DNA of 64,000 nt from NCBI RefSeq assembly GCF_016026235.1, contig NZ_CP065613.1; one strand, given 5' to 3'. Position numbers and translations under genes: made by a program. This document shows, one piece after another, positions 57,527 through 61,727 of the stretch. The stretch's first letter is position 1; every line of letters begins with the position of its first letter. The stretch is from Escherichia coli (GTDB lineage: Bacteria > Pseudomonadota > Gammaproteobacteria > Enterobacterales > Enterobacteriaceae). The notes under the pieces were generated by a model. That model searched no databases, was not told where the DNA came from, and saw only the letters and a program-made list of their open reading frames with translations.

Positions 57527-58078
57527 ATGGCGATACTTGGATATTGCAGGGTGAGTACAGATGACCAATCCATCACTAACCAGCAAATGCAAATTGAAGA
57601 GGCAGGGTACAACATTGCTAAATGGTTCACTGATGAAGCTGTCAGTGGTTCTGTCAAAGCTTCTTTAAGAAACGGTTTCAGTAGTTTGTTAGCTTATGCA
57701 CGAGAAGGTGACACCGTAGTTGTGGTAGCTGTAGACCGTCTTGGACGTGACACAATTGATGTGTTATCAACGGTTAAAGCGCTACAGGCTAAAGGTGTGA
57801 CAGTTATCAGCCTTAGAGAAGGGTTTGACTTATCAAGCGCTATGGGTGAAGCAATGTTAGGCATTATGTCAACGTTGGCACAGCTTGAAAGAAGCTTGAT
57901 AGCAGAGCGTAGAAAGGCTGGTATTGAACGTGCTAAAGCTGAAGGGGTACATATGGGAAGACCTGTAAAAGCTTCTTCAGAGGCTGTACAGATGCTTATT
58001 TCACAAGGTAAAACGAGGTTGCAGATTCAGGAAGAGCTAGGAATCTCTAGAGCAACTTATTACAGACTTGCTAAATAA
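57527..58078 (+). CDS. Small serine recombinase (resolvase/invertase family)
   Basis: 183 aa from ATG 57527 with SD AAGGGG. Starts MAILGYCRVSTDDQ, containing the catalytic Ser. Also has VDRLGRD and a C-terminal GRP...ISRATYYRL HTH. Confidence 0.88.
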   Translation: MAILGYCRVSTDDQSITNQQMQIEEAGYNIAKWFTDEAVSGSVKASLRNGFSSLLAYAREGDTVVVVAVDRLGRDTIDVLSTVKALQAKGVTVISLREGFDLSSAMGEAMLGIMSTLAQLERSLIAERRKAGIERAKAEGVHMGRPVKASSEAVQMLISQGKTRLQIQEELGISRATYYRLAK

Positions 58079-58422
58079 GTTATTAAACAGTTACATGGAT
58101 GTGACTGATATTTGGCTTTTTTGCAAAGGGGGTGCTATATCGAGAATGTACCGTACCAAGCAGCTACAGACATCTGTTAGATATTTTCGAAGATTTTTAG
58201 AAGGGGAATTTGAAGAGGGGCTACTACGATTTTATAAAAATTTTCAGATTCTGAAAAGTTACTGTACAGAATACATACAGACATCTTTAAAGTATCTATA
58301 AAGACTTTTAAGATAAAAGATAGATATCCCAGAAAGGATATCCGTTTAGAAAGCCTGTTAAGTATCTCTTAAAAGAGAGTAAACCTTGTCAATAGTGATT
58401 GCAATAAAAATTTTTATTTCTT

Positions 58423-59085
58423 ATGTCAATTGAGCATATTTTAATCGGGAAACATCATGGGGGTTCTGATTACTGGAGAACTCCATTTCTTATATTCCGC
58501 AATTTGCACCGTGAATTTATTTTCAGTCTGGATGGTGCTGCAACTGAGCATGACACGCTGTTACCACGATTCACCGATGATATTCACAATCAGTCATGGG
58601 ATGGTGAAAGGGTCTTCGTTAACCCACCATACAGCGACACTAAAACATTCCTCGTAAAAGCGTCTGAAGCAGATTTAGCGGTATTCCTGATACCGTACCG
58701 ACCCCAAACCATATACTGGCTTAAGCACATCTTCACAAACCCGCTTTGCCATGAAATCCGTATTCTTCATCGTGCAGTTAAATACCTTCCACCAGCAGGG
58801 CATAACAGGCTTACTATTAGGTCACCGTTTCCAAGTGCAGTCGTTGTTTTTAAAAAAGAACCACGTAAGCATGAAATTACACAGATGATTTGCTGTGGTG
58901 ACACATTGCTACCGTTAACCATCATTAACCGTGGTGGACTAAGAGGAAGACCCACCATTTACCCACCTGAGACGCTCGACAGCTTCATAAAACTATACAG
59001 GCAAGGCAAACCCATTAAGTGCATTGCAGATGCTCTCAGAATGCCCCTGAGCACGTCATACAGGATTGCTCAAAGGTTGAGCTAA
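58423..59085 (+). CDS. Phage-type DNA N6-adenine methyltransferase (Dam-like) fused to a C-terminal Hin/resolvase-type HTH
   Basis: 220 aa with DYWRTP...FSLDGAA...VFVNPPYS (NPPY catalytic motif). The C-terminus reads GRPTIYPPETLDSFIKLYRQGKPIKCIADALRMPLSTSYRIAQRL. Confidence 0.75.
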   Translation: MSIEHILIGKHHGGSDYWRTPFLIFRNLHREFIFSLDGAATEHDTLLPRFTDDIHNQSWDGERVFVNPPYSDTKTFLVKASEADLAVFLIPYRPQTIYWLKHIFTNPLCHEIRILHRAVKYLPPAGHNRLTIRSPFPSAVVVFKKEPRKHEITQMICCGDTLLPLTIINRGGLRGRPTIYPPETLDSFIKLYRQGKPIKCIADALRMPLSTSYRIAQRLS

Positions 59086-59189
59086 AATTCTCATAAATAT
59101 GGTCATTTACAAGACAGGTGTTTTAGATATTAAGAAGTATCCCTGTGAACAATAAATGACCAATCAGTAATTATTCTGTGAAATAATTG

Positions 59190-59218
59190 TTGCAATTTAT
59201 AATCACATCTGTTATAGT
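59190..59218 (+). promoter_or_regulatory. Candidate sigma-70 promoter upstream of the rep gene
   Basis: TTGCAA (59190-59195), 17 nt spacer, TATAGT (59213-59218). A ~240-nt leader precedes the ATG at 59466. Confidence 0.45.
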
Positions 59219-59465
59219 TTCTATGGGCTGATAAAAGAACTCAGAACATTAAGAGGTTACAACGTTGGGAGGCGTCAGAGTATTGACGGATTTTCACAGC
59301 CTCTTATTCATTCAAGGCTTTTCCTTTTGCTGTTAATGCTCGCGTAATCGCTCAGGCTTCTGAGTTCCTTTATCAGTCCATCTTCTAATTAATTCACTCC
59401 CTCTGGGGTTGGTCACTATACGTGGTCAGCCCTTTCTTTGTTTTATTTTTAAAAAGGAAAACGTA

Positions 59466-60401
59466 ATGGAAAAATTTCACATGTTTGATGACCGTATTTA
59501 TCAGATGACTAATGGCGTTAAAGCTGCCGACCGTATTATTTACACTGTCATGTTGAATGAACAAAAGTTTTATCACGATAAGGGGCAATATTATACCCCT
59601 TCATATGCTCATCTTGGTCAGTATGCTGGAATCACAAGAACATCCGTGATTGCATGTATGAAACGACTTGAGGCACATGGTTTAATCAAGAAAACTAACG
59701 TTGCAAGCAATCAGTGTGTTATTAAAGTTTATTCACTTGATGAAGTACCGGAAGTTTTAACAGAGCTTACAGCTAAGGAAGCCAGAAAGGCAAAGCTGGA
59801 GTCTAAAGTTACTCAGTCAGTCAAGAAAGATGACCCACTGAGTCAAAATTCTTTACCCACTGAGTCAAAATTTTTTACTCAGTCAGTCAAAATCTTTGAC
59901 ACGTATAATAACAGTAATAACAAGAAAGAACTTATTAATAACAATAAAGAAGATGACTTTGAAGAAGAATCTCTTAAGAAGGGAGCTTCGCTCTGTGATT
60001 CACATGAATGTGATTCTCTTGGTATTGAAGAGGCTATTAAACAATCTGACTTGGATGACCTTGATAAAGAGGCTATTAAACAAGATGAAGTAAACTCTGA
60101 TGTGAATGAAGTTAGTGACCAGCAAGATACACCTTGCCGCCTCGAATCAACTGATGATGAATTACCGGATGTTGACCTTGATGATGAAGAAGACCCTGAA
60201 GAGGAATTGAAACGTGAACAGCGTAAAGCAGAAATTAAAGAAAGATTCAGAAAGGCGAAGCTAAAGAGCAGGATTGATGAACTTGATGACTTTGATGATA
60301 GTGACGATGATTTTACTTTTACACCAAAAAAGAAAACTCACACCGAGCCAAAGAAAGAAAAAGTTAAAGTCAGACGTGTTTATGGTGGAGGAATGTTTTA
60401 A
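59466..60401 (+). CDS. Replication-initiator-like protein (N-terminal winged HTH, acidic low-complexity C-terminal half)
   Basis: 311 aa from ATG 59466 with SD AAGGA. Contains GITRTSVIACMKRLEAHGLIKK (wHTH). The iteron array lies inside the coding region, as for lambda O. Confidence 0.6.
   Translation: MEKFHMFDDRIYQMTNGVKAADRIIYTVMLNEQKFYHDKGQYYTPSYAHLGQYAGITRTSVIACMKRLEAHGLIKKTNVASNQCVIKVYSLDEVPEVLTELTAKEARKAKLESKVTQSVKKDDPLSQNSLPTESKFFTQSVKIFDTYNNSNNKKELINNNKEDDFEEESLKKGASLCDSHECDSLGIEEAIKQSDLDDLDKEAIKQDEVNSDVNEVSDQQDTPCRLESTDDELPDVDLDDEEDPEEELKREQRKAEIKERFRKAKLKSRIDELDDFDDSDDDFTFTPKKKTHTEPKKEKVKVRRVYGGGMF
59811..59960 (+). repeat. Putative origin: four 22-bp-phased iterons followed by an AT-rich tract
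   Basis: ACTCAGTCAGTCAA (59811), ACCCACTGAGTCAAAATT (59833 and 59855) and ACTCAGTCAGTCAAAAT (59877). The AGTCAA cores sit at 59819, 59841, 59863 and 59885. An AT-rich run follows at 59899-59960. Confidence 0.65.
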
Positions 60402-60691: not shown

Positions 60692-60873
60692 TTTGTTTTA
60701 CCATCATCAATCGTAATTGTGATTTCATATTTGAAAAGCTTAATGCTGAAATTGAATCGTGTACTTTTGGCGATAATCATTTTTAAAAGCTGATACACCA
60801 GAAGCACCAGAAACACAAAGCAACCTAAGCTTGCGAATCTGTGAGATTCAGCAATTGTTTCAAGAAAGCCCAT
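60688..60873 (-). CDS. Small single-pass membrane protein (hypothetical)
   Basis: 61 aa with an ATG start and SD AAGGGG. TM segment LGCFVFLVLLVYQLLKMIIA. It has its own promoter, TTGTCA-17-TATTAT (60953-60925). Confidence 0.5.
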   Translation of the reverse strand: MGFLETIAESHRFASLGCFVFLVLLVYQLLKMIIAKSTRFNFSIKLFKYEITITIDDGKTN

Positions 60874-60924
60874 TAATTCCCCTTATTTATCAAAGGGAAT
60901 GACCTGTATCAGCCCCCTATAAAC

Positions 60925-60975
60925 ATAATATCATGTAAATGAGATGTTGACAATATGTTAAATAAATGTTAAGAT
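60925..60975. promoter_or_regulatory. Divergent promoter pair with overlapping -35 hexamers
   Basis: Plus strand: TTGACA (60947-60952), 17 nt, TGT-TAAGAT (60970-60975). Minus strand: TTGTCA (60953-60948), 17 nt, TATTAT (60930-60925). Confidence 0.55.
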
Positions 60976-61011
60976 TGTAGTATGAGCAAGAGATTTAAGG
61001 AGATTTTTGCA

Positions 61012-61302
61012 ATGACTCACACAGTTACGCGCCTTTTGCCAGAGGCATTTGAACGACTGGCAGCAATCAAAGCCAAATACCCTGATATGAAGCACACAGC
61101 GCTTGTTGGAGAGCTTTTAAAAGAGTCGGTAGCCCTGACCCCTTTCGATAACGTTAAGGGCGTTGCAGAGGGTTCTAAGGCCATCAGAATCACAACAGGC
61201 CAACTGGAACTACTCAAAGCACAGTCCGCAGTAGCAGGTTGCTCAATGATTCAGGTGTTAAGCGCGAAGGTTCATCAACTGGCGGATAGATTGGAGGTTT
61301 GA
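61012..61302 (+). CDS. Putative tandem ribbon-helix-helix regulator
   Basis: 96 aa from ATG 61012 with a strong SD AAGGAG. Two RHH-like segments (HTVTRLLPEAFERLAAIKAKY... and KAIRITTGQLELLKAQSAVAG...). The fold is inferred by eye only. Confidence 0.5.
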   Translation: MTHTVTRLLPEAFERLAAIKAKYPDMKHTALVGELLKESVALTPFDNVKGVAEGSKAIRITTGQLELLKAQSAVAGCSMIQVLSAKVHQLADRLEV

Positions 61303-61727
61303 TGCTATGTACATTTGATTATCATGCGTTTTATCGCCATAGAGGTCATCTTGTCCGTGAGAATAACGGAACATGGAAAGATTTAACTCGTAATGCTGAA
61401 CCCTTCACACACCAGCAATTAAAATCCCGCTTCTCCAGATGGAAGAATGCACCAGCAGATACTGGTGATTTTGAGATTACCCATACATTTGATTACGCAT
61501 CAGAAGATGACCTTCGCAATGCAATTAAGCTGATTGAAGACTTCAATACCTCAGAAGATGTGGATGGTGACAAATATAAATCCCGTGGTAACCGCTATAA
61601 CCGTGATGATATCACTCAGGCCATAAATGCTGGTCAATCTCAGCGATACATCACAGAAAAATATGGTATTTCACGGAGACAGTATTTCTACGTTAAATCA
61701 TTGATTAATAAGGACAATTCAAAATAA
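61302..61727 (+). CDS. Hypothetical protein with a C-terminal Hin/resolvase-type HTH
   Basis: 141 aa from ATG 61302, with a TGATG overlap with the upstream stop. The C-terminus reads DDITQAINAGQSQRYITEKYGISRRQYFYV. Confidence 0.55.
   Translation: MLCTFDYHAFYRHRGHLVRENNGTWKDLTRNAEPFTHQQLKSRFSRWKNAPADTGDFEITHTFDYASEDDLRNAIKLIEDFNTSEDVDGDKYKSRGNRYNRDDITQAINAGQSQRYITEKYGISRRQYFYVKSLINKDNSK

Follow-up and report, generated by a model that had tools for sequence, protein, structure and literature searches.

The characterised methyltransferases of the PF05869 family, those of phages T1, HP1 and VT2, are GATC methylases. They are orphan enzymes of about 150-170 aa (PF05869, TIGR01712), carried on mobile elements and without an extra DNA-binding domain. 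M.SsoII and CcrM are anchored or regulated by a DNA-binding or regulatory module of their own, and the HTH of some cytosine methyltransferases of the M.SsoII type controls the enzyme's own expression. ParB-HTH fusions have also been described (PMC4738411).

The window analysed here, 64,000 nucleotides of Escherichia coli DNA, encodes a methyltransferase in which a PF05869 core is followed by an HTH_7 domain. The fusion agrees with the T1/HP1/VT2 type in catalytic fold, motif order and the NPPY, D-x-A-A, W, R and E positions, and is likewise an orphan on a mobile element. It differs in its additional 60-aa linker-plus-HTH_7 tail and in that its carrier element has no GATC, the site that the phage enzymes modify. 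The tail has the same layout as in Hin, the gamma-delta and Tn3 resolvases and 2r0q, a G-R-P minor-groove arm and then three helices, but in those proteins the domain is joined to a serine recombinase catalytic domain and here to a methyltransferase. The N-terminal HTH of M.SsoII and M.EcoRII, the C-terminal domain of CcrM and the phage ParB-methylase represent the same concept, a methyltransferase with an added module for anchoring or regulation. They belong, however, to another methyltransferase class and HTH family, whereas the HTH of the fusion is C-terminal, and none combines PF05869 with HTH_7.

The carrier element resembles the phage satellites P4, PICI, PLE and the mycobacterial EPIPs in size (about 11.5 kb), in having an integrase and its own replication module, in forming excised circles and in the absence of annotated capsid, terminase or lysis genes. 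It differs from them in encoding tape-measure and Dit-like proteins and two serine recombinases. According to a preprint, satellites otherwise lack tape-measure proteins, except for the EPIPs and a proposal for PLE11 (PMC12822802). The element falls into no known satellite family. It shares total absence of GATC (0 against about 48 expected) with GATC-free phages such as phiX174 (0 against about 20 expected, PMC5014478), but is integrative, satellite-like and encodes its own Dam-family enzyme.

A GATC-free element in mdtG

The left junction in mdtG lies between ...TTGTTCCC and TAAATACAC, as found by comparing attL with attR (strain 90-3040 and contig L174). The whole element measures about 11.5 kb, and related complete copies range from 11.4 to 11.6 kb; the complete copies encode the tape-measure protein, the Dit-like protein and a large serine recombinase (large serine integrase). 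A replication initiator with iterons is also carried. Circular excised forms exist in metagenomes, where attP junctions are present in two contigs (L185 and L166). On the best reading, an excision-competent, phage-satellite-like element has its early or regulatory end in this region. The elements are mosaic to an extreme degree, and their breakpoints coincide with domain borders. Coordinates are collected in the table.

Features of the element within the window (nt, positions in the window; strand as + or unstranded)
Feature	Position	Strand	Description
Integrative element, visible part, inserted in mdtG	56951..64000	+	38% GC; no GATC; continues past window end
TTWTGAGAC half-site cluster upstream of recombinase gene	57406..57510	.	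Five sites, 105 bp; res-like array, predicted function
Near-consensus promoter TTGAGA-17-TAGAAT	57425-57453		Promoter scan
Small serine recombinase	57527..58078	+	183 aa from conserved ATG; Pfam Resolvase 6.3e-42; PHROG DNA invertase 2.5e-57
Recombinase catalytic domain			Residues 4-141
Recombinase HTH_7	57956-58066		Residues 144-180; G-R-P arm just before
Palindrome GATATCC-CAGAAA-GGATATC	58322..58343	.	Leader between recombinase and methyltransferase genes
Dam–HTH fusion methyltransferase	58423..59085	+	220 aa; PF05869 core and HTH_7 tail
PF05869 core	58465-58902		Residues about 15-160
NPPY motif	58621-58632		Residues 67-70
Linker and R-G-R-P arm			Residues 161-181; near-invariant
Methyltransferase HTH_7	58966-59079		Residues 182-219; three helices
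Non-coding block 3' of methyltransferase gene	59086..59240	.	Conserved jointly with HTH-coding segment; short inverted repeats
Promoter-like site in non-coding block	59190-59218		Promoter scan; ahead of replication gene
Replication-initiator-like protein gene	59466..60401	+	Matches PHROG replication initiation families (best E 7.7e-11)
Three 16-nt iterons (TTACTCAGTCAGTCAA)	59809-59890		Repeat family D3; within replication-initiator-like gene
141-aa protein	61302..61727	+	C-terminal three-helix HTH-like domain, residues 101-139 (nt 61602-61718)

The last chromosomal GATC before the element is at position 56782. None is found in the window part of the element (24-26 expected) or in the complete copies (43-48 expected), and the count is zero in every E. 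coli copy examined; with z = -6.9, GATC is depleted far more than any other tetranucleotide. The usual Dam site is therefore not available to a Dam-like enzyme for marking the element that encodes it, and the enzyme is either not GATC-specific or active elsewhere, for instance on the chromosome of the host or on helper-phage DNA. Steering of GATC methylation to element motifs by the HTH is excluded by the zero count. The sequence-only reading had suggested that methylation is targeted to element-specific sites, which fails for a GATC-type enzyme and survives only for a non-GATC one. The density of GATC is normal in the islands of other genera that carry the fusion, so the fusion and the GATC-free state may be functionally unlinked.

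The methyltransferase carries a resolvase-type HTH_7 tail

The core matches the Pfam Dam family PF05869 with 52.2 bits (cut-off 28.1) and PHROG 111 at 1.6e-24, and CcrM is among the fold matches. Throughout the fusion family, residues D37, A39, A40, W59, N67-P68-P69, R93 and E111 do not vary. Activity and specificity are nevertheless uncertain, because the Pfam match spans only part of the model and the score of 39.6 bits against TIGR01712, the NCBIfam phage N6-adenine methylase equivalog, is far short of the cut-off of 97. No restriction partner was found by Pfam, PHROGs, NCBIfam or PADLOC, the last of which labels the protein an orphan methyltransferase, in agreement with the sequence-only reading.

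The tail is a genuine resolvase/Hin-type HTH_7 with a G-R-P arm. It scores 21.4 bits against HTH_7 in the full protein and 25.3 bits, above the cut-off, when searched alone; all 11 of 11 diverse homologous tails match (best 8.9e-12), and the full-length proteins of two relatives (P0123 and P0124) exceed the cut-off. The HTH_7 of the small recombinase scores 23.9 bits (cut-off 23.8), and the two tails align with 33% identity (BLASTP, E 9e-5). A profile of the Dam tails matches the serine recombinase 2r0q at 2.7e-7, G-R-P arm included, and also the gamma-delta (8e-4) and Tn3 (9e-4) resolvases; the match to Hin is weak (E 0.42). In the AlphaFold2 model the methyltransferase core is accompanied by disorder at residues 171-179 and by three helices at 182-219 (pLDDT 88-89 across residues 191-210), and in Foldseek the tail superposes on 2r0q_D with 2.8 A rmsd (58 columns).

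The architecture is rare, and the sequence-only reading was right that it departs from the usual phage Dam layout. It is found in about 7 of the 150 best PF05869 clusters and in 144 of the 5,426 complete E. coli genomes, whereas 50,697 phage records and IMG/VR yielded no example. The other PF05869 fusions seen join further methylase domains and have no HTH. The fusion persists at overall identities as low as 35% and in five genera, four of them other than that of the window. Among 118 full-length cluster representatives pairwise identity is 93% in the tail and 89% in the core, the linker is about 99.9% conserved and no truncated, tail-less version occurs.

Between divergent lineages the profile is mosaic, with 91-97% identity in the non-coding block, which is conserved jointly with the HTH-coding segment before it, against 61-69% in the methyltransferase core. 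The HTH-coding segments have 97% nucleotide identity, with synonymous differences in 6% of the codons for identical residues. The strong conservation of this segment is largely due to mosaic recombination, and since the segments are nearly identical at the nucleotide level, that comparison alone is no evidence of purifying selection.

The recombinase array and the 141-aa protein

TTWTGAGAC occurs five times in the 64 kb (0.99 expected), each time within the cluster upstream of the recombinase gene. The sites form two dyads with spans of 26 bp and 31 bp plus one single site, with half-sites on either side of the promoter. The block is 91% conserved in the divergent E24377A copy, where the recombinase HTH is identical. 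The array looks like the recombinase's own res-like site over its own promoter, judging from its sequence, and this dyad, variable-spacing res-type layout over the promoter points to the recombinase alone as its reader. The recombinase HTH would most likely bind here, and the enzyme may resolve multimers of the replicating circle at the array and repress itself through it. The search for a second crossover site or a res partner gave no candidate. The idea that all three HTH domains read common motifs around the recombinase gene finds no support, and the three recognition helices differ (SRATYYRLAK, PLSTSYRIAQ and SRRQYFYVKS).

The three reading frames and their quoted C-termini are all present in the window, but one Hin/resolvase-type domain in all three was confirmed by profile only for the recombinase and the methyltransferase. 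The 141-aa protein, known from Escherichia and Shigella only, continues for 10 residues beyond the stretch that had been quoted and has G-N-R-Y in place of the G-R-P arm. The window copy has no HTH_7 match in Pfam, and BLASTP gives no alignment with the recombinase or Dam tail. The sole match is HTH_28 (E 0.11 in the window copy, best 5e-4 among relatives). In a profile-profile comparison the protein matched the Dam tails with 82.5% probability over 35 columns, and AlphaFold2 predicts the three helices with pLDDT about 77-84. The resemblance is at the level of the generic HTH fold, the domain being unrelated or distantly related, and the protein is probably a separate regulator.

Possible roles of the fusion

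The DNA targets, catalytic activity and biological role of the fusion can be proposed by inference. We see about an even chance that the HTH_7 docks a minimal PF05869 methyltransferase on specific DNA, with the recombinase HTH binding its own res-like array. The fusion would then be an N6-adenine enzyme with an intact catalytic core, poor in target recognition (without a separate domain for it) and connected to the HTH by a near-invariant flexible linker. Docking would give site selectivity or local action, as in a natural tethered methylase, and the enzyme would methylate a non-GATC sequence, or GATC in other DNA. That the tails instead share only the common fold, the methyltransferase tail being a by-product of mosaic recombination with no dedicated DNA target, would suit the breakpoints at domain borders and the generic HTH of the 141-aa protein. 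It is very unlikely given the retention of the fusion down to 35% identity and in five genera, with linker and arm invariant, and the absence of tail-less versions. An ordinary GATC Dam acting in trans on host or helper-phage DNA, its HTH merely raising general DNA affinity or processivity, is distinctly unlikely. The element would avoid GATC to escape Dam, MutH, SeqA, GATC-directed restriction or its own enzyme's effects. The specificity of the characterised T1, HP1 and VT2 enzymes and the absence of GATC from all E. coli copies agree with this, as does GATC avoidance in enterobacterial phages such as phiX174, which has been tied to Dam/MutH (PMC5014478). However, non-specific affinity would be an odd task for a Hin-type domain that is sequence-specific and has a minor-groove arm, the protein scores far under the phage GATC methylase equivalog cut-off, E. 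coli has a Dam of its own and the same fusion is found in GATC-normal islands.

It is somewhat unlikely that the methyltransferase is primarily a transcription regulator, with its HTH on operators of the early region and methylation as a separate activity. Such operators could lie in the promoter block before the replication gene or at the palindrome of the methyltransferase's own leader, and through them the protein would regulate its own gene or the start of replication. The gene lies at the regulatory end of the element, adjoining an integrase/recombinase, both in E. coli and in the islands of other genera; no classical repressor was detected among the element's other ORFs by Pfam, PHROGs and NCBIfam; and autoregulating methyltransferases have precedent. 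Yet the fully conserved catalytic residues imply that the enzyme function is not vestigial, and no repeated motif assignable to the methyltransferase HTH was found. The segment that encodes the HTH moves together with the following 150 bp, promoter-like site included, as one conserved mosaic block, for which recombination alone can account; the non-coding part is a speculative candidate target of the Dam HTH. At the position of the palindrome E24377A has ACACTC-CAGAAA-GAGTGT, with both arms changed and the spacer kept.

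The methyltransferase and its helix-turn-helix tail

By its sequence, the methyltransferase appears to be a catalytically intact, minimal adenine methyltransferase that carries a bona fide HTH_7 domain. Membership of the Dam family PF05869 was defined as a score above the cut-off together with a catalytic (N/D)PP(Y/F) motif; the protein scores 52.2 bits against a cut-off of 28.1 and has NPPY at residues 67-70, and the residues of the catalytic core are invariant across the fusion family. TIGR01712 (phage N-6-adenine-methyltransferase), the equivalog for enzymes of GATC type, gives 39.6 bits against a cut-off of 97.05 and aligns with residues 15-83 only. 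The enzyme is in PF05869 but outside TIGR01712, and its tail is in HTH_7.

Membership of HTH_7 (PF02796) was defined as a profile score of at least the curated cut-off of 23.8 bits together with a G-R-P arm before helix 1; for the methyltransferase tail a three-helix fold that can be superposed on the DNA-binding domain of a serine recombinase of solved structure was asked for in addition, and all three features were found. The last 46 residues reach 21.4 bits within the full protein and 25.3 bits alone. The profile is matched by 11 of 11 diverse homologous tails (best 8.9e-12), and two distant relatives (P0123 and P0124) exceed the cut-off as full-length proteins. Searched against the PDB, a profile of the tails found the serine recombinase 2r0q (2.7e-7, with the alignment beginning at the G-R-P arm) and also the gamma-delta and Tn3 resolvases. 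The AlphaFold2 model has a confident core, a disordered stretch at residues 171-179 and three helices at 182-219, and Foldseek placed these helices on 2r0q_D over 58 columns with 2.8 A rmsd. Core and HTH are joined by a flexible, near-invariant linker.

The 183-aa small serine recombinase is also a member of HTH_7. Pfam identified a full Resolvase domain (6e-42) and HTH_7 at residues 144-180 (23.9 bits, E 4.5e-5) with a GRPV arm; the score is borderline but the match lies behind the full Resolvase domain. The tails of the two enzymes align by BLASTP with 33% identity (E 9e-5). The sequence-only reading had quoted three C-terminal sequences, all correct in the window, and attributed a Hin/resolvase-type HTH to all three proteins. 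This holds for the recombinase and the methyltransferase but not for the 141-aa protein, which has GNRY in place of GRP, gives no BLASTP alignment to either tail and is not matched by HTH_7; three of its nine relatives match HTH_7, with E values no better than 0.034. Among families HTH_28 fits this protein best, being found in 9 of 9 relatives (best 5e-4) and below its cut-off. Comparison of the 141-aa family with the Dam tails by hhalign gave 82.5% probability over 35 columns, and AlphaFold2 predicted three helices with moderate confidence, for which a fold search with Foldseek returned no significant match, the top hits being serine recombinases at E 0.23. The family of the 141-aa protein occurs in Escherichia and Shigella only; the protein possesses an HTH fold of unassigned family. 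The earlier observation is in this way partly confirmed, and its interpretation is partly supported.

The fusion is genuine, maintained and rare. Among 1.84 billion representative proteins 2,173 match the methyltransferase, and in the best 150 of these only about 7 full-length clusters cover the tail; the others end near residue 145-150. The other fusions of PF05869 that were seen are to further methylase domains. No tail-covering match was found in the 735 matching records out of 50,697 phage records searched, so that the layout is indeed not the usual one of phage Dam, as had been proposed, and no IMG/VR contig carries the full-length fusion, a search with an invariant DNA pattern giving no hit either. 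The gene is present in 144 of 5,426 complete E. coli genomes, always on the chromosome and with 75-97% nucleotide identity. The tail, the R-G-R-P arm and the near-invariant linker are retained down to 35% identity, and also in islands of Winslowiella, Pseudocitrobacter, Erwinia and Pantoea. The combination of PF05869 with HTH_7 was not found in the literature searched, nor was a paper for any of six protein accessions.

Pfam, PHROGs, NCBIfam and PADLOC revealed no nuclease family, restriction partner or defence system in any of the visible ORFs, several of which have no assigned function, and PADLOC labels the gene an orphan methyltransferase; the absence of a restriction partner had been noted from the sequence. 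A restriction-modification system was defined by a cognate endonuclease gene adjoining the methyltransferase gene, and none adjoins it; some variants of the element have a small HNH protein.

The carrier element, its mosaic structure and its lack of GATC

The most interesting facts lie beside the fusion, in the total absence of GATC from its carrier and in the satellite-like, tape-measure-bearing and excising nature of that carrier. The chromosome in the window is of Escherichia type (mdoH, yceK, msyB, mdtG) and mdtG is broken at 56950/56951, from where an element with 38% GC extends to the last position of the window. The element is found in mdtG in RM9088 and 90-3040 too, and the insertion presumably leaves all three strains without a working MdtG efflux pump. 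In strains MRE162, E24377A, D10 and E166 the element is complete and located between yciI and tonB. Full-length copies measure 11.4-11.6 kb (MRE162 copy: 5930-17563 of its locus L002).

Features of the element and its insertion site in the window
Feature	Position (nt)	Remarks
mdtG remnant	55891-56950	N-terminal part of about 55 codons removed by the insertion
TTWTGAGAC half-sites, n=5	57406-57510 (105 bp)	only ones in 64 kb; 0.99 expected
Serine recombinase, 183 aa	57527-58078	element gene
Palindrome GATATCC-CAGAAA-GGATATC	58322-58343	leader of the methyltransferase gene
Methyltransferase, 220 aa	58423-59085	element gene
Replication-initiator-like protein	59466-60401	three 16-nt iterons within the gene
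Iterons, 3 copies of 16 nt, TTACTCAGTCAGTCAA	59809-59890	spacing 44 and 22; inside the replication-initiator gene
141-aa protein	61302-61727	among several small element ORFs without family match

Beyond the part seen in the window, complete copies encode a tape-measure protein (TMP_3, 3e-20), a Dit-like distal tail protein (6e-19) and a 506-aa large serine recombinase. The gene order of the carrier is small serine recombinase, Dam-HTH, replication initiator, small ORFs, tape-measure protein, Dit-like protein and large serine recombinase. In the metagenome contig L185 the right end of an element of the yciI-tonB type is joined to the left end through an 11-bp core, AATGACCCTTG, which is also found at attL and attR; the contig contains this attP junction and wraps around the circle. 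A second metagenome contig, L166, is another circular permutation of the excised element. With an integrase, a replication module and circular attP forms, the carrier is active, replicating and GATC-free, and the iteron cluster is probably its origin.

Neither capsid, terminase nor lysis genes are annotated in the element copies, and the element was not found in IMG/VR or in phage records. A phage satellite was taken to be an element that can integrate, excise and replicate, has few virion genes and relies on a helper phage for its packaging. In its size, in carrying an initiator and iterons of its own and in having none of these three gene classes annotated, the element resembles a phage satellite or a minimal integrative replicon, and it may belong to an undescribed family of phage satellites. 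Tape-measure genes are stated to be otherwise absent from satellites (PMC12822802), and for satellites bearing them the literature searched yielded a mycobacterial preprint only. The question is raised whether an 11.5-kb element that is seen as excised circles and bears tape-measure and Dit genes constitutes a phage satellite of a new type in E. coli.

Comparison with E24377A reveals extreme mosaicism of the element. Nucleotide identity is 64-69% in the catalytic parts of the two enzymes and 94-97% in the HTH-coding ends and the DNA just downstream (57940-58140 and 58940-59240); the breakpoints coincide with domain borders. Purifying selection, which the identical HTH tails of divergent lineages might suggest, was rejected since the nucleotides are 97% identical too, and codons for identical residues differ synonymously in only 6% of cases; the high identity of the HTH segments is the result of recombination and not of slow evolution. 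Each DNA-binding module therefore travels with the adjacent non-coding DNA, which in the case of the methyltransferase HTH includes a promoter-like region ahead of the replication gene. The early region of the element is modular. The D10 variant has a different small serine recombinase, on the opposite strand and 44% identical, and a 90-aa HNH endonuclease (12368-12943 and 16429-16701 of its locus L083); in E166 the small recombinase is not annotated. An inversion as the origin of the D10 orientation was rejected because the gene is a different one, without nucleotide match.

GATC does not occur in the part of the element within the window (24-26 expected) or in the 11.6-kb copy of MRE162 (48 expected), where it is by far the most depleted tetranucleotide (z = -6.9). 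It is likewise absent from the copies in E24377A, D10, E166 and 90-3040 and from the metagenome contigs L166, L174 and L185. The GATC-free zone stops exactly at the borders of the element, the flanking chromosome having normal density, and the absence holds even where a module has been replaced by a non-homologous one. A general link between the fusion and avoidance of GATC was rejected, as GATC density is normal in the fusion-bearing islands of Winslowiella, Pseudocitrobacter, Erwinia and Pantoea; the two properties are therefore not necessarily coupled. GATC avoidance is described for phiX174 and other enterobacterial phages and has been linked to Dam/MutH, its cause being unsettled (PMC5014478). 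An element that encodes a Dam-family enzyme and has no GATC at all bears on the causes of this avoidance.

Possible roles of the fusion and related systems

Among DNA adenine methyltransferases those of PF05869 are the smallest, and they have no obvious target-recognition domain. In the most likely reading, the methyltransferase of the element would dock on specific DNA with its HTH and minor-groove arm, and the docking HTH would supply the target recognition that is wanting in this minimal family. Since the element offers no GATC, the enzyme would methylate a sequence other than GATC or would act on DNA outside the element, for example that of the host chromosome or of a helper phage. A rival explanation is that of a plain GATC Dam which acts in trans and for which the HTH is a non-specific anchor. 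Characterised members of PF05869 are GATC-specific, and an enzyme of that kind would have no substrate in cis; the present protein falls outside the GATC-type equivalog. The literature searched contained neither a methylome of E24377A nor binding data for the enzyme.

Docking for target recognition has two further rivals. The HTH of the methyltransferase may be mainly regulatory, and the promoter-like region that moves with it could be read in this light; the fusion may also be a functionless by-product of mosaicism. Among 118 cluster representatives the tail is 93% and the core 89% conserved, i.e. the tail is at least equal to the core.

The broadest reading combines the site-directed enzyme with the properties of its carrier: an undescribed family of E. 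coli satellites of about 11.5 kb, with two serine recombinases, an origin of their own, tape-measure and distal-tail proteins and all GATC purged, would use a tethered Dam-family enzyme as an epigenetic tool aimed at other DNA. We consider this combination unlikely as a whole. If true, the enzyme could be a naturally occurring tethered methylase of 'DamID-like' kind, or could serve as a weapon or regulator at GATC or novel sites of helper phage or host. The element itself would escape recognition by Dam, MutH, SeqA and nucleases directed at GATC.

Methyltransferases with DNA-binding or regulatory modules of their own include M.SsoII and CcrM; the fusion is similar to these in the concept of an added module and differs in both parts. 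The same applies to the ParB-methylase fusions (PMC4738411), in which a methyltransferase also has its own DNA-binding or regulatory module but both parts differ from those found here. The PF05869 methyltransferase domain is a standard and unexplained component of eukaryotic DIRS retrotransposons, which are moved by a tyrosine recombinase (PMC3783388), and these likewise show a recurrent pairing of a small PF05869 methylase with recombinase-driven mobile elements. The fusion is essentially a natural counterpart of engineered Dam fusions, and it lends itself to the study of how methylation is redirected or confined when a DNA-binding module is added.

TTWTGAGAC half-sites and other repeats of the element

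Four of the five TTWTGAGAC half-sites pair into two dyads (26 and 31 bp) and the fifth is single; together they surround a near-consensus promoter of the recombinase gene (57425-57453, TTGAGA-17-TAGAAT). In the divergent lineage of E24377A the block and the recombinase HTH are conserved together. A res site was taken to consist of several dyad sub-sites with unequal spacing, adjoining the resolvase gene and overlapping its promoter, and the array seems to be laid out like the res site of an autoregulating resolvase. The recombinase would bind the dyads, resolve multimers and repress its own gene. The sequence at 57468-57489 resembles hix/gix half-sites, and a second or inverted partner was found neither in the window nor in a complete copy of the element. 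An invertase system of Hin/Gin type was rejected, neither of these showing an inverted second crossover site that flanks an invertible segment.

Four copies of AGTATCT(N)W on the same strand flank the recombinase gene (57031, 57063, 58291 and 58361), and the window has eight in total against 1.5 expected. The palindrome in the leader of the methyltransferase gene has a counterpart in E24377A (about 13780-13800 of its locus L082), ACACTC-CAGAAA-GAGTGT, with both arms changed around the same spacer; the palindrome might form an RNA hairpin or be a dimer operator. No match to known RNA families in the element reaches the gathering score. An inverted repeat of 27 nt, 96% complementary and with 36 nt between the arms, is located at 62560-62649, upstream of a 236-aa ORF that RefSeq names 'transposase' and that has no family match in Pfam, PHROGs, NCBIfam or PADLOC; the repeat is conserved in MRE162 (L002 11685-11773).

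A 22-nt repeat with TAACGGTAGAATGCAC, including the -10-like TAGAAT, is found at 57436-57457 upstream of the recombinase gene and at 61731-61752 after the gene for the 141-aa protein. Behind the second copy comes an inverted repeat with arms of 25 nt (61747-61825), and this pair is also present in MRE162. A second promoter, together with a structured leader or a small RNA, may lie at 61731-61825.
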